Sequence record: MF158045
Source: Shigella phage Sf22
Length of the DNA stretch: 64,000 nucleotides
Reading direction: 5' to 3' (one strand)
In this document: positions 2,020 to 55,905 of the stretch, in pieces
How positions within the stretch are numbered: position 1 is the first letter of the stretch
Layout: each line of letters opens with the position of its first letter
Made by a program: the position numbers and the translations under genes
Notes under the pieces: generated by a model
The model's input: the letters and a program-made list of their open reading frames with translations, nothing else
What the model was told of the DNA's origin: nothing
Database searches by the model: none

Positions 2020-2679
2020 ATGGCTGATTTAAAAGTAGGTTCAACAACTGGAGGCTCTGTCATTTGGCATCAAGGAAATTTTCCATTGAATCCAGCCGGT
2101 GACGATGTACTCTATAAATCATTTAAAATATATTCAGAATATAATAAACCACAAGCTGCTGATAACGATTTCGTTTCTAAAGCTAATGGTGGTACTTATT
2201 TAAATAAAGTAATTTTTAATAAAGGAATGACTGTTCCTGGCGCAGGGTCAGGTGACAATGGTATTTTTGCTGGTCCTGGTGATAATGCCACGTATGATAC
2301 TACAAATATGGATATTGTTTCGTGGTATGGTATTGGTTTTAAATCATCACAAGGATCAGCAGCCAGAACTGTGGTAATTAATACACGTAATGGCGATATT
2401 AGTACAAAAGGCGTTGTGTCGGCAACTGGTCAAGTAAGAAGTGATGCGGCTGCTCCTATAGCAGCGAATGACCTTACTAGAAAGGACTATGTTGATGGAG
2501 CAATAAATACTGTTACGGCAAATGCAAACTCTAGAGTGTTGCGTTCTGGCGACACTATGACAGGTAATTTAACGGCGCCAAACTTTTTCTCACAGAATCC
2601 AGCATCTCAACCTTCACATGTTCCACGATTTGACCAAATCGTGATTAAGGATTCTGTTCAAGATTTCGGCTATTATTAA
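2020..2679 (+). CDS. 36: Long tail fiber distal connector gp36
   Basis: 219 aa (T4 gp36 about 221 aa); preceded by late promoter TATAAATA; synteny. Confidence 0.8.
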   Translation: MADLKVGSTTGGSVIWHQGNFPLNPAGDDVLYKSFKIYSEYNKPQAADNDFVSKANGGTYLNKVIFNKGMTVPGAGSGDNGIFAGPGDNATYDTTNMDIVSWYGIGFKSSQGSAARTVVINTRNGDISTKGVVSATGQVRSDAAAPIAANDLTRKDYVDGAINTVTANANSRVLRSGDTMTGNLTAPNFFSQNPASQPSHVPRFDQIVIKDSVQDFGYY

Positions 2680-2687
2680 GAGGACTT

Positions 2688-5600
2688 ATGGCTACTTTAA
2701 AACAAATACAATTTAAAAGAAGCAAAACCGCAGGAGCACGTCCTGCTGCTTCAGTATTAGCCGAAGGTGAATTGGCTATAAACTTAAAAGATAGAACAAT
2801 TTTTACTAAAGATGATTCAGGAAATATCATTGATCTAGGTATTGCTAAAGGCGGTCAAATTGATGGAAATGTAACTATTGATGGAACTTTACGCGTCAAT
2901 GGACCAATAAACAACTTTGGAAATTTTTCTACAAGTGGTACTATTACGGCAAGTAATATTGTTTCTGCTACAGTATTCAGATCAACATCCGGTTCATTTT
3001 ATACAAGAGCAATAAATGATACTGCAAATGCCCATCTTTGGTTTGAAAATACGAATGGATCGGAGAGAGGGGTTTTATATTCAAAACCACAGTCTGAAAA
3101 TGAAGGCGTAATTACAATGCGCGTTCGCCAAGGAACCGCAGCAGGGGCTCAAAATTCAGAATTTCATTTCATTTCTACTGATGGCGGTATCTTCCAGGCA
3201 CGCAAATTAACTGCTTTAACTTCTATTAGTACACCAACTATTAGTGTTAATTTAATTAATCATGATTCTAAAGCCTTTGGACAATACGATTCACAATCAT
3301 TAGTTCAGTATGTTTATCCTGGAACCGGTGAAACAAATGGTGTAAACTATCTTCGTAAAGTTCGAGCTAAATCAGGTGGAACTATTTACCATGAAATTTG
3401 TACAGCTCAGACTGGGCTAGCTGATGAAGTTTCTTGGTGGACTGGTAATATACCGTTATTTAAACTATACGGTATTCGTAACGACGGTAGAATGATTATT
3501 CGCAATAGCTTGGCCATTGGTACTGTGACGGAAGGGTTTCCGTCAAGCGATTATGGAAATACTGGGGTAATGGGAGATAGGTATTTAGCTCTTGGCGATA
3601 ATGCTTCTGGACTTAAATGGGTTCGTACTGGCGTTATTGACTTAATGGCTAACGGTATTTCTGCGGCGTCTATTATTAATAATGGTATTAACAGTACTAA
3701 AAAATTAATGGTTGGTTATAGTCGAGATTCTGGTTCTACTTGGGATTTCCCAAATAACAACCAAGCAATGTTTACTGCGCGTACCGATGTTGATGGTAAT
3801 AATAACGGTGATGGTCAAACTCATATCGGTTATAGCAGTAATTCTAAAATGTATCACTATTTCCGTGGTACAGGTCGTATGTCCGTTAGTATGGGCGATG
3901 GACTTCTTGTTGAGCCTGGCATTTTAGATATTAAAACTGGTTCAAATTCATTAAATTTGCGTGCTGATGGTACTGTTGCATCTACTCAAGAAGTTAAGCT
4001 TAATAATGGGTTATTCTTTAATAGTAGTTCTTCTAACGCCGGTCTTAAATTTGGCGCTTCTTCTTCTATAAATGGAACTAAGACAATACAATGGAACGCA
4101 GGCACCCGCCCGGGTCAGAACAAAAGCTATGTGACCATGAAAGCATGGGGCAATGCATTTGAGGATAATACTAATAAAAACAGAGAAACTGTATTTGAAT
4201 TAGGCGATGGACAGGGTTGGCATTTTTATTCACAGCGCGTTGCTCCTGCAGCAGGTTCTACTGCCGGTTCTGTTGAATTTGCGATGGCCGGTAGTTTATT
4301 AACTTCTGGTTCTATTACAACAAGATCTTCCCTGAATGCTGATAATGGATTGTCTGTAAATGGACAAGCTAAATTTGGTGGAACGGCTGATGTATTAAGA
4401 ATTTGGAATGCTGAATACGGTGCTATTTTCCGTCGCTCAGAAAGTAATCTTTATATTATACCGACTCCTAAAGATGCTGGAGAATCGGGCGGTATAAGTA
4501 ATCTTAGACCATTGATAATAGAACTGAACACTGGCACAGTTAAAATGTCGCATGATGTTCATTTAGGAGATTCTGGATCTGGTACAGGACTTTTACAAGT
4601 AAGTAATAGTCTTAAAACTATTAAAATGATATGTCCAGTAACTATTAATGAACGCAATGCAGCGCTTACCCTGGATTCTCCTTCATCTTCTTCTGCTAAT
4701 TATTTACAGGGTTCTAAAGCTGGAACTAGATCATGGTACGTTGGTCTTGGCGGCGCTGGAAATGATTTATCTCTTTATAGCCAATCTTATGGACATGGTC
4801 TTGTTATAAGTGATAATTTCACGTCAATCACTAAGCCTCTTAAAGTCGGCAATGCCCAATTAGGAACTGACGGTAATATTACCAATGGTTCAGGAAACTT
4901 TGTCAACTTAAATACCACGTTAAATCGTAAAGTTAATTCTGGATTTATTACTTATGGAGCAACCTCTGGATGGTATAAGTTTGCAACAGTAACAATGCCA
5001 CAATCCACTTCGACGGTCTTCTTTAAAATAGTTGGAGGTTCTGGATTTAATAGCGGATTATTCACACAATGTAATATTGCTGAAATTGTTTTACGTACTA
5101 GTAATGAAAGACCTTCTGACTTAAATGCTGTATTATACACAAGAACAACTGGAATGTATAGCGCAGCATTTAGAAATATTGCAGTTAACAATGTCTCTGG
5201 AAATACATATGACATTTATGTTTATGCTGGAACATATTGTAATCAACTAGTTTGTGAATGGTCATGTACCGAAAATGCTACTGTTAGCGTTATTGGTATT
5301 AACTCATCTACCCAATCACCTGTGGATGCTCTTCCAGATACAGCAGTTGATGGGCAAGTTGCTAATGTTCTTAATAACTTGGTTGATCGTGGTAAAGTTA
5401 AGCGTTATGAAGCCGATTCTGAAATAGCTATTAATAGCCAAACCGGTATTCGTATCAGAAGCAATGCCGATAAAACTGGTTCTGTGGCTACAATGTTACG
5501 AAATGACGGTGGCAGTTTTTATATTCTGTTTACAGATAAAAATGCCACTGATGGCGCAGCAACTGTTAATGGTGATTGGAATAGTAAACGTCCTTTCGCA

Positions 5601-7891: not shown

Positions 7892-8164
7892 TTATTTGTT
7901 CGTATACATCTCTAGATATCGATATACACCCTCAAAACCCTCGTTGAATTCGTCGATGAGGGTTTTCTTATCTTCTTGAGTTAATTCAGAAACAATTTTA
8001 CGGAATGAATTCTGATTTAATTTTCTACCTTCATGCGTTACTCCAATCTCATTCAGAAATGCAATAAAATTAGCACGATTCTCAACAATATCTTCTCTGG
8101 AAAATTTAATCAAAATAGACGCAACAGTAATAATTTCACGAACTGTATCAATGTTTTTATTCAT
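7892..8164 (-). CDS. asiA: Anti-sigma70 factor AsiA
   Basis: 90 aa, MNKNIDTVREIITVASILIKFSREDIVENRANFIAF matches T4 AsiA as recalled. Confidence 0.95.
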   Translation of the reverse strand: MNKNIDTVREIITVASILIKFSREDIVENRANFIAFLNEIGVTHEGRKLNQNSFRKIVSELTQEDKKTLIDEFNEGFEGVYRYLEMYTNK

Positions 8165-9983: not shown

Positions 9984-10619
9984 TCACAGTTCAGATGCTA
10001 CAGTGATTACAGCTTCAATGTTTTCTGCTGAACGTTTAATGTCAAGATACACATTACCGTTTTTAGCGATTTTACATGACATTCCGATATCAGTAAATTT
10101 CTGAATATGATGTTCCATCATTTTGTATCCAAAAATTCGCATATTTCCATTATTGTTAATTTCAAAATTACGAATTCCGTGAGTGCGTTTTTCTAAAATA
10201 GCGAGATAGTTACTGCGATAAGTTTCAACCTTTTTAAGAACAAATCCATTTTCATCTAAAAGTTTTAACATGAAGTCTTTATCTTCTTCCATATCAGAAG
10301 TAATCTCACGAGATTTACGAGTTGCTCGTTTTTTCAGCAGTTCCGGAGCATTTTCCTGTGCGTATAAAGTTGCTGCGTTTGAAATAATATCCTGAGCTTC
10401 ACCAGTAATGATTAATCCATCACCAGATTTCTCTACCAGGCCCTTTTTAATCAATACACCAATATTACTATTAACTACTGCGTTACCTAAATCTGGATGC
10501 ACCTCACGAACTTCTGCAGCTGTAATGAAATCTTTCTTAGCAATAGTAATTAAAATCGCAGCAGTTTTTTCATTCAGAACATCGTTAGAAGCTTTGATGA
10601 TGTAAGTTACTTTAGACAT
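9984..10619 (-). CDS. motA: Middle transcription activator MotA
   Basis: 211 aa, N-terminus MSKVTYIIKASNDVLNEKTAAILITIAKKDFITAAEVREVHPDLGN matches T4 MotA as recalled. Confidence 0.95.
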   Translation of the reverse strand: MSKVTYIIKASNDVLNEKTAAILITIAKKDFITAAEVREVHPDLGNAVVNSNIGVLIKKGLVEKSGDGLIITGEAQDIISNAATLYAQENAPELLKKRATRKSREITSDMEEDKDFMLKLLDENGFVLKKVETYRSNYLAILEKRTHGIRNFEINNNGNMRIFGYKMMEHHIQKFTDIGMSCKIAKNGNVYLDIKRSAENIEAVITVASEL

Positions 10620-10660
10620 TTTCTAATCTCCGTAATTCTGTATCAGTAGTTGATAGTTGT

Positions 10661-10690
10661 ATAGTACCACAGTATGCTTTGGTTGTAAAC
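10661..10690 (-). promoter_or_regulatory. T4-type early promoter upstream of motA
   Basis: Minus strand GTTTAC, 18-nt spacer, TACTAT. Confidence 0.65.
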
Positions 10691-10699
10691 CGTTTTGTG

Positions 10700-10739
10700 A
10701 AAAAAATTTAAAATAAAAAGGGAGAGCCGAGGCTCTCCC
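10700..10739 (-). terminator. Intrinsic terminator-like hairpin downstream of gene 52 cluster
   Basis: Minus strand GGGAGAGCC-tc-GGCTCTCCC followed by U-rich tract; lies just upstream of the motA promoter. Confidence 0.6.
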
Positions 10740-13923: not shown

Positions 13924-13951
13924 TTTCTGTTCCTCCGTAGTTGATAGGGTA

Positions 13952-13981
13952 ATAGTACCACGGAAGAACAGTCTTGTAAAC
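13952..13981 (-). promoter_or_regulatory. T4-type early promoter upstream of small membrane peptide ORF
   Basis: Minus strand GTTTAC, 18 nt, TACTAT. Confidence 0.55.
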
Positions 13982-14166
13982 AACTTTTTTAAAAATATTC
14001 GTAATAAATGTGAATACCAACTACTACCGCTGAAACCTGTGCAACCCACCACGCGCAAGCAATAAGTACAGAATTCAAAATTTTCATAATAACCTCATTA
14101 CAAAAGTAAATGTTAAACAAATTACTGGAATACTAATTAACCAAACAAAACACCACCATAATGAAC

Positions 14167-14442: not shown

Positions 14443-14467
14443 ATCCGTATCAGTAGTTGATAGTTGT

Positions 14468-14497
14468 ATAGTACCACGGTCCTTGTGGTATGTAAAC
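14468..14497 (-). promoter_or_regulatory. T4-type early promoter upstream of ORF 14167-14442
   Basis: Minus strand GTTTAC, 18 nt, TACTAT; same leader motif as the motA promoter. Confidence 0.6.
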
Positions 14498-14512
14498 TGT
14501 TTTGTGAAATTT

Positions 14513-15070
14513 TTAAATGGAAAGATACCATCCGCTGTAGTTGCTTTTTCTTACAACTTTACGAAGGTCTTCTCTGTCACCGATGAACTTCGGAGTGTAC
14601 TGGATGACACCTGGATGAATTTCTTTAGTGTTGAATATAATTATACAGTCAGCGACTTGATGATTTAGAATGGGCCCTAGATTTATTCCAGAACCATATG
14701 GATACTCTCCGCTGCATCCTGTTGTTACCGAAATCCAACGCGAGTCAGTTTGATGTGTCTTAACTTCTACGCGAAGCCCGCAGTATTTTGGATGCGCCAA
14801 TACATCCCATGCATATGTGTACGGATCATCGACATCTTCTTGGCCTTTATTGACATATCCGCTTAGCCAATCTGCCACAAAAAACTCTGCGTACACAGCG
14901 ATACGGCATCTTTCGATAACTTCTGCCTTATCCTGATTTGGATTTTGTTTTAAAGAGTATCTTGCTGTATCAGCAATTTTGACCTTCATTTCACTAGTCA
15001 AGTCACTGTTCGATAGGGTAAATGTCGGAATCTGAAATAGTCTCCGTAAACCCGGATTCGTTTTCTGCAT
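14513..15070 (-). CDS. denB: Endonuclease IV DenB
   Basis: 185 aa (T4 DenB 185 aa); position between ndd cluster and rIIB. Confidence 0.8.
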   Translation of the reverse strand: MQKTNPGLRRLFQIPTFTLSNSDLTSEMKVKIADTARYSLKQNPNQDKAEVIERCRIAVYAEFFVADWLSGYVNKGQEDVDDPYTYAWDVLAHPKYCGLRVEVKTHQTDSRWISVTTGCSGEYPYGSGINLGPILNHQVADCIIIFNTKEIHPGVIQYTPKFIGDREDLRKVVRKSNYSGWYLSI

Positions 15071-18756: not shown

Positions 18757-20576
18757 TACTGGCTCATCCATTCTTTACGAAGGTCAGCATTATCTCCCAT
18801 GAGCATTTCAAAAAGCTCTTTCCAATTCTCAGGAAGTTTAACAACATCATATACTGGATTTTGAATCATCTCACGATATTCAGATTTTTCCAAAGAGCCA
18901 AGTCCCTTAATATAACGGATGCTATGTTTAGGTAGAGCATCTTTGGCACTCTCATATTCAGCGACTGTATAAAACCATTCTTGTTTTTTACCGACCTGAG
19001 CGATGATTACAGGAGTTTTGACAAAGCGAATTCGTCCTTGCTCAAACAATTCTGGCCAATTACTAAAAAATCCGAGCAGAGAAGGATAAATGCTTCCTAA
19101 ACCATCATGGTCAGCATCAGTCATAATAGCAATATTATGATAATTCAAGTTTTCAGCTTTTTCACCGAGAACTAGACCAGTGATTGCGCAAATATCAAAT
19201 AATTCTTTGTTTTTAAGCATATCTGCATAAGACATACCCCAACTGTTGAGAACTTTACCACGCAATGGATAACCACCGTGAAGTTCTTTATCACGAACAT
19301 CAATAAGATATCCGATAGCCGAATCACCCTCAGTCAAGAAAAGAGTAGTATCAGCATCTTTACCGCAAAGATTCGCTTTGATATGTTTATGAACTTTAGC
19401 TTTAGAAGCCTTTTTAGCTGCTTTAGTTTCAGCTGCTTTTTCTGCTGCCAATTTACGGGCCAAGGCAGCTTCAATAATCGGCATTAAAATTGCTTCATTA
19501 TTTAGAATAGCGCGTGAAATCTTTTTAGCATCAAGCTGAATATGACTACGAATTTCGCCAAATGGAGAAGTCAAACGCTCTTTAGTTTGAGAATCAAATC
19601 GCATGTTTTTCATATCACGGACAAACATAACGATAGTCAAACATTCTTTGACACGTGCTTTAGTTACATCAATTTTGAACTTACGTTTGATTTGTGGAAT
19701 AAGGTCTTCACAAATATCATCCATAACACAGTCAATGTGATGGCCACCATTCTTAGTGTGAATGTTATTCACATAAGTTAATTGGCGAAATCCATCCGGT
19801 GAACGACCAACCGCAATAGAACAATTTTCTTGTTCTTGAACAATAGCATGTTCATCATACTGTCGTGCATATTTCTTAAAATTGCCCTGAACCTTTTTAC
19901 CATTAAAGGTAAATTGAATATCAGGATAAACTACTGCAAGTGTCTGGAGACGATCCAGTGTAATGTCAAGATAAACTTGGGACAGCTCATTAGTTTCAAA
20001 TGACATAAAATCTGGAATGAAAGTAACACGAGTTCCTTTCCATTTTCCAGGAATAGTTTCCCAGGATTTATTTTCCATGCCATTTGAACAACGAACTACA
20101 ATATTATTTTGACCATCGCCAGTTTCACCGACAAACATCACAGAAAAAATGTTAGTTAAACTAGAACCAACACCATTCATACCACCGGTGACACGTTCTT
20201 TATCATCACCAAAGTTACCACCCGCTTTTGGAATAGTCCAAGCAGCAACTGGACCAGGAATTTCTTCACCGGTAGGTGTTTTAACCATCGCTTGTGGAAT
20301 ACCACGACCGTTATCTTCAACTGTTACTTGATTGTTTTTGATAGTAACATTAATTTTATTTGCGAATTTAAACTTAGTACGAATACCTTCATCTACTGAG
20401 TTATCGATAATTTCATCAATAAGCTTAACAAGACCAGGTACATACTGAACACTTTCCCATTTACCAAACAGAAAGCGCTCATGCATTTCATTAGCAGAAG
20501 AGCCAATATACATGCCGCTACGCTTTTTGATATGTTCAATATCGCTCAGAATTTTAATTTCATTCTTAATCATCAC
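18756..20576 (-). CDS. 39: DNA topoisomerase II large (ATPase) subunit, uninterrupted gp39/gp60 equivalent
   Basis: 606 aa, GHKL ATPase plus Toprim-like regions in one frame; T4 splits this into gp39 and gp60. Confidence 0.9.
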   Translation of the reverse strand: MMIKNEIKILSDIEHIKKRSGMYIGSSANEMHERFLFGKWESVQYVPGLVKLIDEIIDNSVDEGIRTKFKFANKINVTIKNNQVTVEDNGRGIPQAMVKTPTGEEIPGPVAAWTIPKAGGNFGDDKERVTGGMNGVGSSLTNIFSVMFVGETGDGQNNIVVRCSNGMENKSWETIPGKWKGTRVTFIPDFMSFETNELSQVYLDITLDRLQTLAVVYPDIQFTFNGKKVQGNFKKYARQYDEHAIVQEQENCSIAVGRSPDGFRQLTYVNNIHTKNGGHHIDCVMDDICEDLIPQIKRKFKIDVTKARVKECLTIVMFVRDMKNMRFDSQTKERLTSPFGEIRSHIQLDAKKISRAILNNEAILMPIIEAALARKLAAEKAAETKAAKKASKAKVHKHIKANLCGKDADTTLFLTEGDSAIGYLIDVRDKELHGGYPLRGKVLNSWGMSYADMLKNKELFDICAITGLVLGEKAENLNYHNIAIMTDADHDGLGSIYPSLLGFFSNWPELFEQGRIRFVKTPVIIAQVGKKQEWFYTVAEYESAKDALPKHSIRYIKGLGSLEKSEYREMIQNPVYDVVKLPENWKELFEMLMGDNADLRKEWMSQ

Positions 20577-22397: not shown

Positions 22398-22408
22398 GTT
22401 GTTTTCTG

Positions 22409-22451
22409 TATCAGTAGTTGATATTGATATAGTACCATAATCAACTACTGA
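22409..22451. repeat. 13-bp perfect inverted repeat with 17-nt loop
   Basis: ATCAGTAGTTGAT at 22409-22421 and ATCAACTACTGAT at 22439-22451. Confidence 0.85.
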
Positions 22452-22482
22452 TGTATATAGTTTTATGAAAAAATTTTAAACT

Positions 22483-31553: not shown

Positions 31554-31811
31554 TTAACCACCTACACCTGGTGTAGGTGTAACAGTCCAAAGACCTTCAT
31601 TAGCAGTGATCCATTCAGTACGCTGATTTTCTTCATATACTGTAGAATATGCTGCTTTTTCAGAAGGGAATGTCTGATAATGAGCACCAGAAATTTTGTG
31701 AACATCAGAATAAAGAGGGAAAGCTACAGAAATTTCTTTACCCTGAATTGTACCACCATCAACTGCTTGGTCAAATGTTTTGATATTAACATAACCGCGA
31801 GTACTAGCCAT
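31554..31811 (-). CDS. soc: Small outer capsid protein Soc
   Basis: 85 aa, MASTRGYVNIKTF...KEISVAFPLYSDVHKISGAHYQTFPSEKAAYSTVYEENQRTEW matches T4 Soc as recalled; late promoter TATAAATA upstream. Confidence 0.9.
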   Translation of the reverse strand: MASTRGYVNIKTFDQAVDGGTIQGKEISVAFPLYSDVHKISGAHYQTFPSEKAAYSTVYEENQRTEWITANEGLWTVTPTPGVGG

Positions 31812-31827
31812 GTAATTCTCCTTTTAT

Positions 31828-32037
31828 TTAAATTACATGATTATTTATAATAAATTCTCGCGGAACGTTAAAATACCCGATTTTAGTTAATATAACAACA
31901 TCACCGTTAATAATTACCGGAGAATAATCTTCTGGAGCATTAAATTTCCAATGGGCTCTAATATTATATCCATCAGAACCAAATGCTCGAGTAGCCGGTC
32001 TCCCGGCTTTTTGCCACGCGTAGAAATCAAATTTCAT
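31828..32037 (-). CDS. Hypothetical protein (69 aa)
   Basis: ORF track. Confidence 0.45.
   Translation of the reverse strand: MKFDFYAWQKAGRPATRAFGSDGYNIRAHWKFNAPEDYSPVIINGDVVILTKIGYFNVPREFIINNHVI
31842..31849 (-). promoter_or_regulatory. T4-type late promoter (TATAAATA) for soc
   Basis: Exact TATAAATA on minus strand about 30 nt upstream of the soc ATG. Confidence 0.7.
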
Positions 32038-32228
32038 TTTGAATGCTCTATAATTAATTTTAAAGCTTCTTCACTGACAAAAATTTCGTCAGGACCTTCT
32101 ATAACTTCAACCATACGAAGTTGATTAGTTAAGAGCTCACATACGAGCTCCTTGTTATAATCTTTAAATAGCTGGTCAATACGTTTCTTGTGGGCTTTCT
32201 TAAGCTGGCGTTTATTTAAACGAGCCAT
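32034..32228 (-). CDS. Hypothetical protein (64 aa)
   Basis: ORF track; stop/start overlaps on both sides. Confidence 0.45.
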   Translation of the reverse strand: MARLNKRQLKKAHKKRIDQLFKDYNKELVCELLTNQLRMVEVIEGPDEIFVSEEALKLIIEHSK

Positions 32229-32746
32229 TAATAACCTCGGTCTTGACGAGCGAAGTTTTCAGCATTTTTCAGATAATAAAGTTTAAAGATTTCTTCAGCC
32301 GTAAGACCGAGACCTTGGAACATGTTCAGAACGAAATGAAGAATATCAATCATTTCGAATTTAATTTCCAACTGGTCTTGTGGAGACAAATCAGTAATTA
32401 AAGTTTCACGACGTTCACCATGTTGAGCTTTCCAAGGCTTCCATACAGCAGATGCATCTTTTTCGCCATTGCTCATACCACCAAGAGAAGTCAATAGTTC
32501 GCGGAATTCATCATCAATATAATCTTTCTGATTACGCAGCCAATCAACAACTTCACCCGCAGTAGCCAAATCATCAGGATGACGGTTATATTCAGGTTTA
32601 TCTTTAGCTAAACGAACCTGAAGAGATTTCTGCATATCAAGCATAACTTGCAGCGGGTCTTTTTCATCACCGAGAATATCCCAGTATTCATTTTGAGCTT
32701 TATCAGCGCCTTCAATCAGTTGTGAACATTCATTAAAGTATGCCAT
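32228..32746 (-). CDS. 56: dCTP pyrophosphatase gp56 (MazG-like)
   Basis: Internal start MAYFNECSQLIEG gives 172 aa (T4 gp56 171 aa); the ORF-track 5-prime extension is unlikely. Confidence 0.8.
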   Translation of the reverse strand: MAYFNECSQLIEGADKAQNEYWDILGDEKDPLQVMLDMQKSLQVRLAKDKPEYNRHPDDLATAGEVVDWLRNQKDYIDDEFRELLTSLGGMSNGEKDASAVWKPWKAQHGERRETLITDLSPQDQLEIKFEMIDILHFVLNMFQGLGLTAEEIFKLYYLKNAENFARQDRGY

Positions 32747-32817
32747 TATTTTTCCTTTCAATTCATGGGTTAGTAGATTAATTATACAATAAATATATAA
32801 AGCAATAAGGAGGACAT

Positions 32818-33018
32818 ATGGTACAAAAATTAATGGCACTTGTTAATGCCATAAAAGGTAATAAAAAACGTATAGCTTTTACTATTTCTGCTATGGTAGG
32901 AATTTTACTCTGGAACTTTATTCTATCACCTGTTGCAATTGCGCATGGTATTAATATTCCAGTAGTTACTCTTGATACATTTGTAGATTTAGCATTTGCT
33001 TTAGTTGGGTTGATTTAA
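32818..33018 (+). CDS. Small membrane protein (66 aa) on plus strand
   Basis: Strong SD AAGGAGG 6 nt before ATG; two predicted hydrophobic helices; only plus-strand ORF with a good RBS in the early region. Confidence 0.5.
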   Translation: MVQKLMALVNAIKGNKKRIAFTISAMVGILLWNFILSPVAIAHGINIPVVTLDTFVDLAFALVGLI

Positions 33019-34043
33019 ATCTTAGCATATTTAGATAGCCGCATTTTAGCCATCAACCCTTGGGCAATATTATTTTTCATATATTCCATAATTTGTTTAG
33101 GGGTTGCACCTTCCTTTCTAATCATATCATTGACATCTTTTGATTTCCAGGGAGATTTATCCCAAAACATAACCCTTTCTCCTGCATCAACTAATTTAGT
33201 CATTCGCTTAATAGTGTCAGGATGACGAGGTTCATTATCTAAAACCCACACACGTCTATCTTTAAATGGAACAACTTCTAGGTCTAATTGACCACCCGTA
33301 ATAGCTATACCATTTTCAATAAAAAGTGAATCTATAGGTCCTTCTAGAACATATACATCACCATCTTTAACTCGTTCGACTCCATAGATTTTTGTTGCTT
33401 CAGGATAAGCTTTGATGGTGATATATTTTTGAGGAGCATCTTTCTTTAATGCACGTCCTTGAAAAGACTCAGCTTTTCCATTAGCATTATAAATTGGAAT
33501 AACAAGACGAGGCTCAGAAATTTCCTTTTTGTATGTTCCTGGTGCTATGCTATTAACTAATTTAGGCCATTCGGTTGTAAACCAAAGATATTTCCATTTA
33601 TCCTTTGGAATACAACGAGCTTTTACATATTTTATAATTGCATGGTCTTCCGCCAGTTTATCTAATCGAACACATGACGGAAGAGATTTAATTATTTTCT
33701 TCTCAGGTTGTTTAGGAAGTTCTTTAGGTTTTTCTACTGGACGACTTTTACCTTTTTCTTTTCTTATTTCAAAGATATACTCACGATATAAATCAGGTTC
33801 AAACTCCTTTAAATATATTCCGATTGGTGCATGATAGTTACAGTTATAACAATGAATATTTCCTTCATTATTATCACCATAATACCATCCACGAGCTTTA
33901 TTCTGGTCGGTTTTTGAATCTCCACAAACAGGACATCTAAACCGTAATTTAAAAGTTGAACTATTATTTACTTGTGTGAATTTAGGTAAATGAGCTAATG
34001 CACGGTATGCAAACTCATTATCAATCCAAGGTATTGATGACAT
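33015..34043 (-). CDS. 61: DNA primase gp61
   Basis: 342 aa (T4 gp61 342 aa); N-terminal zinc ribbon CPVCGDS...CYNCNYH. Confidence 0.9.
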   Translation of the reverse strand: MSSIPWIDNEFAYRALAHLPKFTQVNNSSTFKLRFRCPVCGDSKTDQNKARGWYYGDNNEGNIHCYNCNYHAPIGIYLKEFEPDLYREYIFEIRKEKGKSRPVEKPKELPKQPEKKIIKSLPSCVRLDKLAEDHAIIKYVKARCIPKDKWKYLWFTTEWPKLVNSIAPGTYKKEISEPRLVIPIYNANGKAESFQGRALKKDAPQKYITIKAYPEATKIYGVERVKDGDVYVLEGPIDSLFIENGIAITGGQLDLEVVPFKDRRVWVLDNEPRHPDTIKRMTKLVDAGERVMFWDKSPWKSKDVNDMIRKEGATPKQIMEYMKNNIAQGLMAKMRLSKYAKI

Positions 34044-34046
34044 TTT

Positions 34047-34211
34047 TACTCTTCTTTTTCTTTAGATTCCTCTTTTTTCTTTTTAGGAATCTGCTCAGGG
34101 CCTTTATTTACTACAGCGCCTGACGTTGTTCCAGTAGAGATATTTTCAGGATTACCACCTGAATCTCCAGCGACCATATCTTCTTTAATAAATTCTTTAT
34201 ATGTTTTCATA
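34047..34211 (-). CDS. Small hypothetical protein (54 aa), Lys/Glu-rich C-terminus
   Basis: Manual translation MKTYKEFIKEDMVAGDSGGNPENISTG... Confidence 0.35.
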
Positions 34212-34256
34212 TTAACCTCTATTCATAAAAGCATTAAAAATTTGGTCATCAATAGA
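34211..34256. repeat. 46-bp direct repeat, copy 1 (3-prime end of 61.1-like ORF)
   Basis: ATTAACCTCTATTCATAAAAGCATTAAAAATTTGGTCATCAATAGA, one mismatch to the copy at 34569-34614. Confidence 0.9.
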
Positions 34257-34568
34257 TGGAATAGCAACCTTTTCGGCATCATTTAGCAAATCATTAATTT
34301 CATCAGATAGCATAACACATGTGCCTTTATTTCCTGTAATTGTTACTGCACAATTACGAACGTTTTCTTTATCAAATTTTAGGTTAATATTTTCGTAGTG
34401 AAAATCCTTTAATGCCGAATATATCTTTAAAATGAAATTGTCTTTTACTACAATAAACCCAACTTCACTATTAAAACGTGGTTCATGGAAACTGTAATAA
34501 ACCTTTTCATCTATAAAATCGTATGAAATTTTTTCCATTTTTAAATATGAAAATTCAGAACTATACAT
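34212..34568 (-). CDS. Hypothetical protein (118 aa), 61.1-like
   Basis: ORF track; C-terminus SIDDQIFNAFMNRG shared with the next ORF. Confidence 0.5.
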   Translation of the reverse strand: MYSSEFSYLKMEKISYDFIDEKVYYSFHEPRFNSEVGFIVVKDNFILKIYSALKDFHYENINLKFDKENVRNCAVTITGNKGTCVMLSDEINDLLNDAEKVAIPSIDDQIFNAFMNRG

Positions 34569-34614
34569 ATTAACCTTTATTCATAAAAGCATTAAAAATT
34601 TGGTCATCAATAGA
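34569..34614. repeat. 46-bp direct repeat, copy 2 (3-prime end of 61.2-like ORF)
   Basis: Near-identical to 34211-34256. Confidence 0.9.
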
Positions 34615-35196
34615 AACATTTACTTTAGACTGTTTTTCAGATGGCAATTCATATCCACATATTACAATTTTATGATCAATATTAAAATACACAGAAGCAA
34701 TATGATTAATGATATTTTCAGTGAAGTCTAAATCGACATCAATATCTTTTTGACCAAAGCCCAAAGGATAAATAATGCGAGTAATTCGATTATCTTTAAC
34801 AAAGATTCCACCGACATACTCTGTACTGCGTTTAAAGTCTACACGCCGACGAAATGAAAAATATTCAGGCTCTCTATGAGCTCGGCTCATAGGACACAAC
34901 GAGTAACTAGAATAAGAGATGTCAAATCCTACACCTTCGATATGAGCCAAAGTGTTATGATTAAACCAATTATAATCGTACGCCAAATCCATTAGATTAT
35001 AATATGTAAAAGGCACCGGATTAACATCATTAGTCACAAGCATGTAATTAGCAACTGCTATAATTTCATTGTTTTTAACGAATACAAACCGTGATTGATG
35101 CGAATGACCTGGACCCGCGTTTTCACGATTAATGATATAACACTGGGCACCTTTATATTTGTATGTATCTTTGCACTTGTGCATTTGATAGAGCAT
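34570..35196 (-). CDS. Hypothetical protein (208 aa), 61.2-like
   Basis: ORF track; C-terminus SIDDQIFNAFMNKG shared with the previous ORF. Confidence 0.55.
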   Translation of the reverse strand: MLYQMHKCKDTYKYKGAQCYIINRENAGPGHSHQSRFVFVKNNEIIAVANYMLVTNDVNPVPFTYYNLMDLAYDYNWFNHNTLAHIEGVGFDISYSSYSLCPMSRAHREPEYFSFRRRVDFKRSTEYVGGIFVKDNRITRIIYPLGFGQKDIDVDLDFTENIINHIASVYFNIDHKIVICGYELPSEKQSKVNVSIDDQIFNAFMNKG

Positions 35197-35489
35197 TATT
35201 CACCTACCACTTCAGCGATGATATTTTTGTTATTAAAGTTTTTATCGCAATACAGAACATAATTATACTGCATTACACCACCAGACTTAAGTTGTTTTTG
35301 CACTTCAGCTTTCATTTCAGGACGATCACGCTCAACGATATTCATAATATCCGCTTCAATTTGAGTTTCAACTTCAGTCTGATCCGCAGTCATAGACCAT
35401 TCGCACAAATCTTTATCATAACCTGCCATAGCAGGCTGAGCAGCACAAGAAGCTAAAGCAAAAATTGTGGCAAAGATAAATTTTTTCAT
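35196..35489 (-). CDS. sp: Spackle periplasmic protein (superinfection exclusion, gp5 lysozyme inhibitor)
   Basis: 97 aa with signal peptide MKKFIFATIFALASCAAQPAMA; position between 61 and 41; T4 Sp is 97 aa. Confidence 0.75.
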   Translation of the reverse strand: MKKFIFATIFALASCAAQPAMAGYDKDLCEWSMTADQTEVETQIEADIMNIVERDRPEMKAEVQKQLKSGGVMQYNYVLYCDKNFNNKNIIAEVVGE

Positions 35490-35549
35490 GATAATCTCCT
35501 CAGTAGTTTATGTTTATATAGTATCTCAATTTCCAACAAAAATAAACAG

Positions 35550-35849
35550 TTATTTTAAAACTTCTGCGTAATCACATGTTACAAACTGTTTCTCTAGCTT
35601 AACGATCTTACGAAAATACCTTTTACACTGACGAATCTGTCGCTTCGTAGGACGTACAGCAAACTTAATAAATTCCACTAGACCAAATGGAGGACTTTCT
35701 TCTGCTGGAATATCTAACACCAATTCCCACGTATCTGCAATAAGTGCTTTGAATTGCGTATTTTTCCTGACGTTATACGGAGTAGGTTTAAATAAAACAA
35801 TATGCATATTATCCTCGGCAATCCACTTCGCACACTTTCTTGTCATCAA
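35550..35849 (-). CDS. Hypothetical protein (99 aa), 61.4-like
   Basis: ORF track; position. Confidence 0.5.
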   Translation of the reverse strand: MMTRKCAKWIAEDNMHIVLFKPTPYNVRKNTQFKALIADTWELVLDIPAEESPPFGLVEFIKFAVRPTKRQIRQCKRYFRKIVKLEKQFVTCDYAEVLK

Positions 35850-35991
35850 TGAAAGCTTTAACTAATGCTTTATTAACTTCAGCATACTGAGTAGTAGCCC
35901 ATTGAACGTCATCTTTCATCATTGTGGTTTCTTTAGTAAACATGCTTTCATTCTTAAACCACCCCATAAAAACTACCTTTACCAATTCCAT
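35809..35991 (-). CDS. dmd: Dmd antitoxin (inhibitor of host RnlA/LsoA toxins)
   Basis: 60 aa, MELVKVVFMGWFKNESMFTKE...; size and position adjacent to gene 41 match T4 Dmd. Confidence 0.8.
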   Translation of the reverse strand: MELVKVVFMGWFKNESMFTKETTMMKDDVQWATTQYAEVNKALVKAFIDDKKVCEVDCRG

Positions 35992-36049
35992 AACAATCTC
36001 CTCATTTAACCAACAAGACTACTATACCATAGTCTCGTCAGCTTGTAAA

Positions 36050-37477
36050 CTAAAATTTTAATTCATTCGCCAAAGCATCTAACTGAGCTCGAGTCGATTC
36101 GTTTCTTTGATAGCGATTCTGTTCAGCCTGAATCTGTTGTGAACCTGCTACCTCACTCACTTCAGTTGGAGTAGAATCTTGTTCAATTTCTACCCATTTC
36201 TGATTTCCCTTTTGAACACCCATCAAAAACTTATTCCACTTATTCTTATCGCCATATCGTGATTTGATTTGCTTAATGAGTTGTTGTTCAGCAGCTGCTA
36301 GCTCCTCGGTTTCAATGACCGCAAGCATAAAATCAGCTGTTGCTGGAAGACCAGCAGATTCTGCAATATCGCTCATGTTAACATCAGAAGAGTCCCAAGC
36401 TTGTTTACCGACCTGTGCTGCAGTCCAAAGAACAGTTTCGGTTTCAACAGCCAGAGCACGCAATTCCTCTGCGATAGCTTTAACAGTTGTGTAACTATTT
36501 TCTGAATAAACTCGGATGCGACAAGATTTACAAATACCCAGATAGTCGACAATAATGATTGTTGGAACAAAATTCTTTTTGAGCTTTAATTCATTTAAAA
36601 GTGATCGAAATGTATTAGCATCTGCTCCACCAGTAGGGTACTGTTTAACGATTAAACGACCAAGAGTAGATTTCTCACGCCATTTTTCCATTTTTCCTTT
36701 ATACTCGGCGTAAGAAATATGTCCATCATCAATATCGTCAAGAGAAACATCGAGCATATTAGCATCAATACGTTTAGCGCAGACTTCTTCTGCCATTTCC
36801 ATGGAGATATAAAGAACGTTATGACCAAGCTGCAAATAATCTGCTGCTAATGAACAAAGTCCTAATGATTTACCAACGTTAACGCCAGCCATTAAAACGT
36901 TCAGTGTTCCAGTCTCAGCTCCGCCTTTAGTAATTTTGTTTAGAATTCTGAGTTTAAATGGAACCTTACGAGCTTTATTCATATAAGATAGCCAACGCGC
37001 TTCGTAGTCATCCATCCAATCATGACCAACGTAACTATCAAATGAAATTGATAATGCTTGGCGCATGATGTCAGGAATAGCACCAACATCCGGCATTTTC
37101 TTATTTCGTTTTTCCGGAGGAAGTTCAGCATTAGTTTGAATTTCGATTATTTTAGACGTAGCATTAAACATCGCCCTTTGCTGAACATATTTTTCTGTTT
37201 CTTTTACTAACCAACTGTGGTCTTCCGGAGAATCAGCTAGTTTTGAAATAAGTGTTTTTACACCAGAATATTCTGTTTCAGTAAATGAACTATTTTCTAA
37301 TGCAACATTTAACGCATTAATAGATGGAACGCTATGGTACTCATTAACATGAGATTTAATTAATTTGAATGTATTTTTAGCTGGACCACTTTCAAAATAT
37401 TCTGAATCCATATATGGCCAAACTTTTGAAAAATAAGCTTGATCAAATATAAGATGAGAAAGAATAATTTCTACCAC
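36050..37477 (-). CDS. 41: Replicative DNA helicase gp41 (DnaB-like)
   Basis: 475 aa (T4 gp41 475 aa); Walker A GVNVGKS. Confidence 0.95.
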   Translation of the reverse strand: MVEIILSHLIFDQAYFSKVWPYMDSEYFESGPAKNTFKLIKSHVNEYHSVPSINALNVALENSSFTETEYSGVKTLISKLADSPEDHSWLVKETEKYVQQRAMFNATSKIIEIQTNAELPPEKRNKKMPDVGAIPDIMRQALSISFDSYVGHDWMDDYEARWLSYMNKARKVPFKLRILNKITKGGAETGTLNVLMAGVNVGKSLGLCSLAADYLQLGHNVLYISMEMAEEVCAKRIDANMLDVSLDDIDDGHISYAEYKGKMEKWREKSTLGRLIVKQYPTGGADANTFRSLLNELKLKKNFVPTIIIVDYLGICKSCRIRVYSENSYTTVKAIAEELRALAVETETVLWTAAQVGKQAWDSSDVNMSDIAESAGLPATADFMLAVIETEELAAAEQQLIKQIKSRYGDKNKWNKFLMGVQKGNQKWVEIEQDSTPTEVSEVAGSQQIQAEQNRYQRNESTRAQLDALANELKF

Positions 37478-41456: not shown

Positions 41457-41705
41457 TCAAATGCAAGTAGTAATTACTCCAGTAGTGCTTATGCAGGTAT
41501 TACCCATTTGCACACCTAAAGATCCATTTGTATTCACATGAAGATTATCATCAATTTTAACTGATATTTTACCATTAGTGTGAATAACGGTGCTAGATTC
41601 AATCACAGGTTGAGTATCATTTTCAACACTAACAAATGGAACTGCTGCTAATGCAACTAAACAAACTGCTAAGCATCCCATAACAATTTTCATTTTATTC
41701 TCCAA
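41457..41705 (-). CDS. Putative secreted/membrane protein (82 aa)
   Basis: N-terminal signal-like segment MKIVMGCLAVCLVALAAVPFV; early promoter upstream. Confidence 0.5.
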   Translation of the reverse strand: MENKMKIVMGCLAVCLVALAAVPFVSVENDTQPVIESSTVIHTNGKISVKIDDNLHVNTNGSLGVQMGNTCISTTGVITTCI

Positions 41706-41727
41706 ATCCGTATTAGTTGATAGTTGT

Positions 41728-41757
41728 ATAGTACCATGGAAGAACAGTCTTGTAAAC
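41728..41757 (-). promoter_or_regulatory. T4-type early promoter upstream of ORF 41457-41705
   Basis: Minus strand GTTTAC, 18 nt, TACTAT. Confidence 0.6.
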
Positions 41758-41844
41758 AGTTTTGTGAAAATTTTTTAGGGAATTCTAAAGGTCCAGAATC
41801 ATCTGTTTTTCATAAGTATAGATTTATATTACTTGTATGAAAAA

Positions 41845-55748: not shown

Positions 55749-55777
55749 ATCAATTCCTCAAAAGTAATTCATATGTT

Positions 55778-55807
55778 AATAATACCATGGTTTGAACTTG
55801 TTGTAAA
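55778..55807 (-). promoter_or_regulatory. T4-type early promoter upstream of ORF 55566-55748
   Basis: Minus strand GTTTACA, 18 nt, TGgTATTAT. Confidence 0.6.
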
Positions 55808-55905
55808 CAACTTTGTGAAAATATTTTAGGGAATGACAAGAAGGGAACGATAGCTTAGAATGGTAATATACAGAATGCGAGAAAGAAAGGCCCAGAGGGC
55901 CCGTC

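Follow-up and report, generated by a model that had tools for sequence, protein, structure and literature searches.

A 49-nt repeat of coding and promoter sequence flanks a variably present 358-bp cassette next to adfA in Tequatrovirus phages

Two near-identical 49-nt direct repeats in the window, by which we mean the whole 64-kb stretch of DNA analysed here, flank a 358-bp unit that some Tequatrovirus genomes carry and others lack. Taking the explanation as a whole, we consider it fairly probable that the repeat is a composite gene end, combining a C-terminal helix, the translational-coupling junction TAATATG and the middle promoter P61, and that it brackets a cassette that is lost and regained by recombination. 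The body of the cassette would be ORF118, which is related as a paralog to the C-terminal half of AdfA, is old and has been maintained by selection; its probable origin is a partial tandem duplication in which the 61.1 start codon within the repeat was taken over. The near-identity of the two copies is likely to reflect non-allelic recombination or gene conversion together with dual selection on peptide and promoter. Recombination between the copies would remove the cassette precisely and leave the T4 arrangement, recombination with co-infecting phages or with excised circles would restore it, and loss and regain together would generate the natural presence/absence polymorphism. AdfA, P61 and the annotated RB32 ORF are each known separately; their combination and the four-state polymorphism are undescribed in the literature searched.

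Locus layout and the content of the repeat

The window belongs to Tequatrovirus and shares 99.9% identity with phage Kha5h across the adfA-61.1 stretch. According to its ORF list, the minus strand carries every gene of the 61-to-sp region: gene 61, the DNA primase gene that P61 serves (33015-34043; ORF list and T4 comparison); gene 61.1, of 54 aa (34046-34210; 96% nucleotide identity to T4), whose ATG is the final 3 nt of one repeat copy; ORF118, of 118 aa (34212-34568; RB32ORF033c-like, PHROG 4122); adfA, which is T4 gene 61.2, of 208 aa (34570-35196; Pfam PF23813, E 2e-135, and T4 annotation); and sp (spackle; 35196-35489; Pfam T4_Spackle), the upstream border of the variable slot. Beyond sp follow 61.4 (tifA in T4, PMC9391042; here Pfam DUF7279) and dmd, also assigned with Pfam (together 35550-35991, minus strand), and then gp41. 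Because the T4 order is 61, 61.1 (54 aa), 61.2 (208 aa) and sp, the 54-aa ORF is 61.1 and the 208-aa ORF is 61.2. The initial annotation had labelled the two genes that share the repeat 61.1-like and 61.2-like, and the first of these labels has to be withdrawn: the comparison with T4 places the real 61.1 at 34046-34210, and T4 has nothing equivalent to the 118-aa ORF, whose counterpart is RB32ORF033c, annotated "similar to gp61.2" and mentioned in no paper of the literature searched.

The same annotation overlooked that the 208-aa ORF, gp61.2, is AdfA, the anti-DarT factor A (LeRoux et al., 2022, as cited in PMC11257639 and PMC9391042). AdfA binds DarT1, and neutralisation is decided by residue 164, His versus Arg, with His at this position in the active alleles (PMC11257639); the AdfA of the window has His where RB69 has residue 164. 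T4 without adfA shows no phenotype (PMC11257639), and the name anti-toxin island has been given to the group of dmd, tifA and adfA (PMC9391042). On the other side of gene 61, the stretch from soc through 56 to 61 (31554-33018) lacks segF and dam relative to T4 and is not collinear with Kha5h, soc being shifted by about 425 bp; it holds two small ORFs of 69 and 64 aa (31828-32228) and a plus-strand dam.1-like ORF (32818-33018).

The two repeat copies, A at 34208-34256 and B at 34566-34614, both read on the minus strand, agree at 48/49 positions and start 358 nt apart (repeat search of the window). The sole mismatch is at repeat index 38 (window 34219 versus 34577), which is G in copy A and A in copy B, and the repeat in gene direction reads TCTATTGATGACCAAATTTTTAATGCTTTTATGAATA(G/A)AGGTTAATATG. 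Fourteen codons (SIDDQIFNAFMN-R/K-G) are followed by the stop TAA, a single T and the start codon ATG of the downstream gene, with stop and start overlapping as TAATATG in each copy; copy A holds the last 14 codons of ORF118, its stop and the start of 61.1, and copy B the last 14 codons of adfA, its stop and the start of ORF118. The repeat had been reported as 46 bp with one mismatch; it is real and the single mismatch stands, and its length is corrected to 49 nt, the additional 3 nt being the ATG of the downstream gene. As had also been reported, the ORFs at 34212-34568 and 34570-35196 both finish in SIDDQIFNAFMN(R/K)G and the repeat reaches beyond their stop codons, running 7 nt past the last sense codon (TAA-T-ATG). 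Identity drops to background directly outside the 49 nt. Only these two copies are found in the window when 3 mismatches are allowed, none of 100 dinucleotide-preserving shuffles gave any match, and the repeat is the highest-identity long direct repeat of the 64 kb. The remaining repeat families of the window are T4 early promoters and terminator hairpins, with 62-97% identity. A six-member family of 77 nt with 62-78% identity (10636-10712, 13927-14003, 14443-14519, 22404-22480, 41703-41779 and 55754-55830) appears to represent the early promoters, and five further repeats, a family of their own, are GGGCCGAAGCCC hairpin terminators.

The initial annotation also overlooked that a mapped MotA-dependent middle promoter of T4 sits in the repeat. 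In T4, the start site of P61 is listed at 19122 (PMC2988021, Table 1, citing Marshall, Sharma and Hinton 1999), and the middle-promoter consensus is a MotA box, wwwTGCTTtA, 12 ± 1 bp upstream of TAtaaT (PMC2988021). We applied as criteria a MotA box (a/t)(a/t)(a/t)TGCTTtA centred near -30 and a sigma-70 -10 element TAnnnT 12 ± 1 bp downstream, and checked the T4 coordinate convention on four promoters, P56/69, Pdam and PuvsX behaving like P61. The single repeat copy of T4 (19176-19128) is identical to copy A of the window, its TAATAT occupies -12 to -7 relative to 19122 with the start exactly 7 nt past this -10 element, and copy A matches the T4 sequence at every position from -54 to -6. In both window copies the MotA box TAATGCTTTT agrees with 9/10 consensus positions and is followed by TAATAT exactly 12 nt downstream. 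By its identity to T4 P61, copy A has its MotA box at 34227-34236, its -10 TAATAT at 34209-34214 and a predicted +1 at 34202 on the minus strand; by sequence match, copy B has its MotA box at 34585-34594, its -10 element at 34567-34572 and a predicted +1 near 34560 on the same strand. Compared with T4, the window thus has a second copy 358 bp upstream, whose promoter elements differ from P61 solely at -17 (34577, A for G) and whose predicted start would fall inside codon 3 of ORF118. The trans-acting proteins of middle promoters are both encoded in the window on the minus strand (Pfam E values 1e-42 to 1e-67), namely the required activator motA (9984-10619; Pfam MotA_activ and MotCF) and the co-activator asiA (7892-8164; Pfam AsiA).

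On this evidence, copy A is predicted to act as the MotA-dependent middle promoter P61 in this phage, and its predicted start at 34202, downstream of the 61.1 ATG, is consistent with P61 serving gene 61. Copy B may fire as a second P61 promoter, and the primase gene of tandem-type phages, those with adfA and ORF118 in series, is predicted to be driven from two P61 copies. Among the sampled Tequatrovirus genomes the MotA box and -10 element of copy A never vary, while in copy B a T to C change affects the MotA box of Ac3 and the -10 element is altered in Shfl2. In phage Lutter (NC_054924) the depositors annotated "promoter" on both repeat copies (1810-1836 and 2168-2194), an independent flag of the sequence that we assign to P61. 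Phages with neither adfA nor ORF118 lack the MotA box of P61, and for this reason the promoter seems dispensable.

Old gene bodies and a young repeat

The initial annotation had called the two genes paralogs, an idea that depends on similarity in the rest of the proteins, and the comparison of the bodies bears it out, though weakly. With the last 14 residues (the tail) removed, ORF118 finds AdfA by BLASTP with E 0.002, a Smith-Waterman shuffle test gives z 4.6 (the score being reached by 2/2000 shuffles), and hhalign of the tail-less family alignments pairs ORF118 1-103 collinearly with AdfA 93-194 at 27% identity and E 0.0046. The register is constant across Tequatrovirus AdfA alleles, with z about 2.4 to 6.2, and the Mosigvirus allele reaches z 2.0 only. 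The complete ORF118 passes the Pfam AdfA model PF23813 with 34.1 bits against a gathering cutoff of 27 (E 2.3e-8), a score to which the shared tail contributes part, and the match covers ORF118 22-118 and profile positions 113-211, in the C-terminal half of the profile. Unlike AdfA itself, which has both halves in about 208-216 aa, ORF118 is 118 aa long, is missing the N-terminal half and forms its own PHROG family (4122); in a large protein database it makes up five clusters at 90% identity and AdfA sixteen. ORF118 retains the segment with the specificity residue (RB69 position 164) as well as the identical 14-aa tail. Its Cys73 aligns with the specificity position and is invariant in 6/6 cluster representatives, whereas AdfA proteins carry His, Arg or Asn there.

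Purifying selection on ORF118 is indicated by dN/dS of 0.19-0.39 between alleles, which differ by dS 0.43. AlphaFold2 models, of low confidence for ORF118 (pLDDT 60) and moderate confidence for AdfA (pLDDT 72), are strand-rich and show the shared tail as a terminal helix, again at low to moderate confidence; the AdfA model has a low-confidence linker at 75-94, just ahead of where the ORF118 alignment begins. Foldseek of ORF118 against BFVD gave TM values of 0.35-0.42 only, with an AdfA-length protein and a 145-aa VR25 protein among the top matches. Nothing significant came from Foldseek of the AdfA structure against the PDB, and a PDB sequence search gave no match. The sequence-based support for homology is modest but consistent, and we conclude that ORF118 is an old, short and presumably functional paralog of the C-terminal half of AdfA (residues ~93-208); by the same relationship ORF118 may be an anti-toxin factor.

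The age of the repeat can be set against that of the bodies through codon usage at conserved residues. In the bodies of ORF118 and AdfA, where amino-acid identity is about 27%, conserved residues share the codon at 11/27 positions (41%), the level seen between anciently diverged alleles, so that synonymous sites are saturated, whereas in the tail 12/12 comparable codons are identical (body versus tail, Fisher p = 3.5e-4). Saturated bodies beside identical tail codons exclude a recent whole-gene duplication. The related proposal that the 3' part of adfA was recently duplicated in tandem, with the 49 nt as the portion yet undiverged, would account for the collinearity of ORF118 with AdfA 93-208 and for the same junction at both ends; it is contradicted by the codon test, by the low body identity, by the dS among ORF118 alleles and by the abrupt step in identity at the repeat boundary, and we regard it as highly improbable. 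Of the two origins offered by the initial annotation, recent duplication or gene conversion, the first is thus set aside; the data are compatible with gene conversion, or with recombination, that is limited to the repeat. The 49 nt have been specifically homogenised or conserved, and the repeat is much younger than the gene bodies.

Selection could in principle do this by itself, if the tail peptide, P61 and the ribosome-binding site constrained every base with no recombination between the copies. The promoter motifs within the repeat, with their unchanging elements in copy A, speak for such constraint, and so does the tail, which is invariant across AdfA, ORF118 and a third protein. In Dhakavirus and Gaprivervirus (86 records) the gene after sp encodes a 146-aa protein (PHROG 8539) that finishes in the same 14 residues as AdfA and ORF118, while its body has no similarity to either in hhalign (E 0.6-0.8). 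Mosigvirus AdfA likewise retains the tail. Because the peptide is conserved where promoter motifs are degraded, as they are in Mosigvirus and most Dhakavirus, the tail is selected in its own right, and peptide selection alone explains part of the nucleotide conservation. Between genera the identity of the repeat (10/13 codons, P about 0.1) is not significantly above the codon background, defined by a gapped codon comparison of gp61.

Two Dhakavirus phages with the 146-aa protein in the adfA position, vB_EcoM_005 (locus 2011-2451) and IME341 (locus 369-809), have repeat-like 49 nt with 2-3 differences from Tequatrovirus, compared with 5-7 in their congeners JS98, VR5 and IME281, which may reflect lateral exchange. 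At the 61.1 locus, the homolog of Mosigvirus PhAPEC2 (locus 2070-2537) has 155 aa, of which the C-terminal ~46 are matched by the 54-aa T4-type 61.1 (PHROG 2086); this suggests an old truncation there.

Several observations count against constraint on every base. The divergent adfA allele of Ac3 keeps the same tail peptide with six synonymous changes in its repeat copy, Lutter-type alleles have three changes and Mosigvirus five, and overall natural copies (Ac3, Lutter, Sf21, Mosigvirus) tolerate 2-6 synonymous changes; since these alleles keep the peptide, nucleotide identity of the repeat is not obligatory. The window copies still agree throughout the first 20 nt, which lie upstream of the MotA box. 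Two rare variants, C9 and T12, are found in copy B in Lutter, NiC89 and R5505 and in copy A in Sf21, which indicates exchange between the copies, at two sites and in a small sample. With Manna as the sole exception, repeats followed by 61.1 have G at index 38 and those between adfA and ORF118 have A, a pattern that fits crossovers upstream of this position. Identity in Ac3 rises in steps from the C-terminal part of adfA (73%) through copy B (90%) and ORF118 (99%) to copy A (100%), and in Sf21 it is 82% in ORF118 and 96-98% in the repeat copies; the region is a mosaic whose identity breakpoints coincide with the repeat copies. We accordingly judge selection without recombination to be quite unlikely, and favour recombination between copies acting together with selection.

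Natural arrangements and the routes between them

In T4 and T6 exactly the 358-bp unit is missing and a single repeat copy is present, and over the 91 nt compared, the junction of T6 has the very sequence that in-silico recombination of the window yields. The suggestion of the initial annotation that recombination between the copies would delete the intervening gene precisely is in this way matched by a natural arrangement that is 358 bp shorter, with the 118-aa gene removed exactly. Junction-specific searches of 50,697 phage records indicate four arrangements in Tequatrovirus, to which ORF118 is restricted. The ORF118 body is present in 297 records in the phage-record search, and the junction searches divide these into 156 with adfA and ORF118 in tandem and 141 with ORF118 only (the T2 type), an exact sum. 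By subtraction, and thus approximately, about 168 records have adfA only (the T4 type) and about 30 have neither gene; the raw counts of the "adfA-repeat-61.1" and "sp-spacer-61.1" junctions are inflated by pieces joined across the 358-bp gap. A value of 78 ORF118-only records was discarded as too low, its matches lying at the E-value limit, in favour of the 141 from the junction search. Genomes were sampled from INPHARED records, and pattern scans of IMG/VR gave just 9 and 13 loci.

T2 (AP018813) has ORF118 at locus 1443-1799, comparable to window 34212-34568, and no adfA. It has been described as a phage that "naturally lacks an adfA homolog" (PMC11257639), and nonetheless bears this member of the Pfam AdfA family. 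RB3, RB9 and SA20RB have neither gene, and in RB9 and SA20RB (locus about 1570-1585) sp is followed by a 12-nt spacer, TTAGAGGCTAAT, and then by 61.1. This spacer equals the 3' end of the repeat and is common to the ORF118-only and empty arrangements. Where ORF118 follows adfA it is flanked by the 49-nt repeats, and where it follows sp (JoYop, Manna) that same unit of 358 bp lies between 14-nt repeats of TAGAGGTTAATATG. Two genomes have altered copies: in T-01 (locus 1443-1769) a 1-nt difference near the start lets the ORF118 frame begin only at Met11 (108 aa), and in CT01 (locus 1501-2063) adfA is split into two ORFs, with five codons missing just ahead of the tail; both cases reflect either decay of the copies or errors in sequencing. 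The sp-dmd stretch also varies (locus coordinates JoYop 2221-3028, Shfl2 2791-3045, RB9 965-1219), with extra small ORFs that include a goF-like gene in JoYop, and with it the whole 41-61 interval behaves as a plastic island.

Recombination is very active in T-even phages, so two copies of the repeat should mediate precise loss of the cassette. In T4, deletions and amplifications arise in the same region even at homologies of 6-10 bp (PMC9391042). Repeat-by-repeat recombination is presumably the actual route to the T4 arrangement. Counting against the favoured explanation are the apparent dispensability of P61 in the empty form and the 12-nt spacer of the ORF118-only and empty forms, which is reproduced neither by simple repeat-by-repeat deletion nor by microhomology deletion; for the latter, the predicted junctions differ from the observed TTAGAGGTTA(A/G)T and the candidate was rejected.

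The direction of change could also be the reverse, with the T4 arrangement ancestral and the tandem form arisen by insertion. Under this alternative ORF118 was gained from a T2-type phage through a 358-bp circle or an unequal crossover, the repeat served as the anchor, and most events were gains. The occurrence of the same 358-bp unit in two contexts, after adfA and after sp, its confinement to Tequatrovirus and the mini-circles documented for PeSL cassettes (PMC2839356) all lend it some weight. It leaves the first origin of ORF118 unexplained, however, and the tandem copy B has A at index 38, where G would be expected from a crossover with the T2-type spacers that were sampled. We hold a history dominated by insertion to be possible but the less likely course; it is compatible with the favoured explanation, because gain as well as loss proceeds through the one repeat.

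The repeat might also be a duplication introduced in assembly, or a target-site duplication left by a transposon or homing endonuclease; nothing speaks for this beyond the presence of a direct repeat on either side of an insertion. Against it, 156 independent phage records share the tandem junction. A mobile element would be expected to bring its own enzyme and a short target-site duplication, whereas the 358-bp unit encodes ORF118 alone, with no transposase or endonuclease domain, and known target-site duplications are far shorter than 49 nt. The probability that we allow such an artefact or element is negligible.

Relation to other phage systems and biological meaning

A close parallel is offered by the PeSLs, repeated promoter cassettes for which modular shuffling and mini-circle formation have been described in T4-type phages (Arbiol et al., 2010, PMC2839356; Comeau et al., 2014, PMC4122927). 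Like these, the window has a short repeated promoter-bearing sequence that flanks accessory ORFs in a plastic region and coincides with indel boundaries between close relatives, here the 358-bp indel between T4/T6 and the window, and homologous recombination has been proposed for both. PeSLs are intergenic, however, with a sigma-70-like early promoter and a terminator stem-loop, whereas the repeat of the window is of the MotA type and has no stem-loop; in a consensus scan neither copy showed a sigma-70-type site, and the interval 33900-36100 contained nothing resembling a terminator. Because the repeat is mostly coding sequence, swapped genes inherit a common C-terminal tail. The repeat lacks the defining features of a PeSL, yet by analogy appears to work similarly. 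The dmd-tifA amplifications of T4 (PMC9391042) concern the same anti-toxin island and the same proposed recombination between direct repeats, but involve microhomologies of 6-10 bp and were laboratory-born, whereas the homology here is 49 nt long and underlies a standing natural polymorphism of four states.

A broader proposal can be made, which we regard as doubtful: the slot downstream of sp in T-even phages would be a recombinase-independent cassette site, and the 49-nt module a portable anchor by which anti-defence bodies, namely those of AdfA, of ORF118 and of the unrelated 146-aa protein, are captured, stacked and exchanged, each fused in frame to the 14-aa helix as a common functional handle, with ORF118 as a minimal toxin-binding domain whose target differs from that of AdfA.

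If ORF118 acts as its relationship suggests, it would be a widespread and so far unremarked addition to the phage anti-DarT toolkit in about 300 Tequatrovirus genomes. T2 is among them, and has been used experimentally for its natural lack of an adfA homolog, while carrying ORF118. More generally, the locus suggests that sequence that is both coding and regulatory can anchor the homology for gain and loss of anti-defence genes, and the four-state polymorphism would offer clean natural material for studying how phages tune their counter-defence repertoire.
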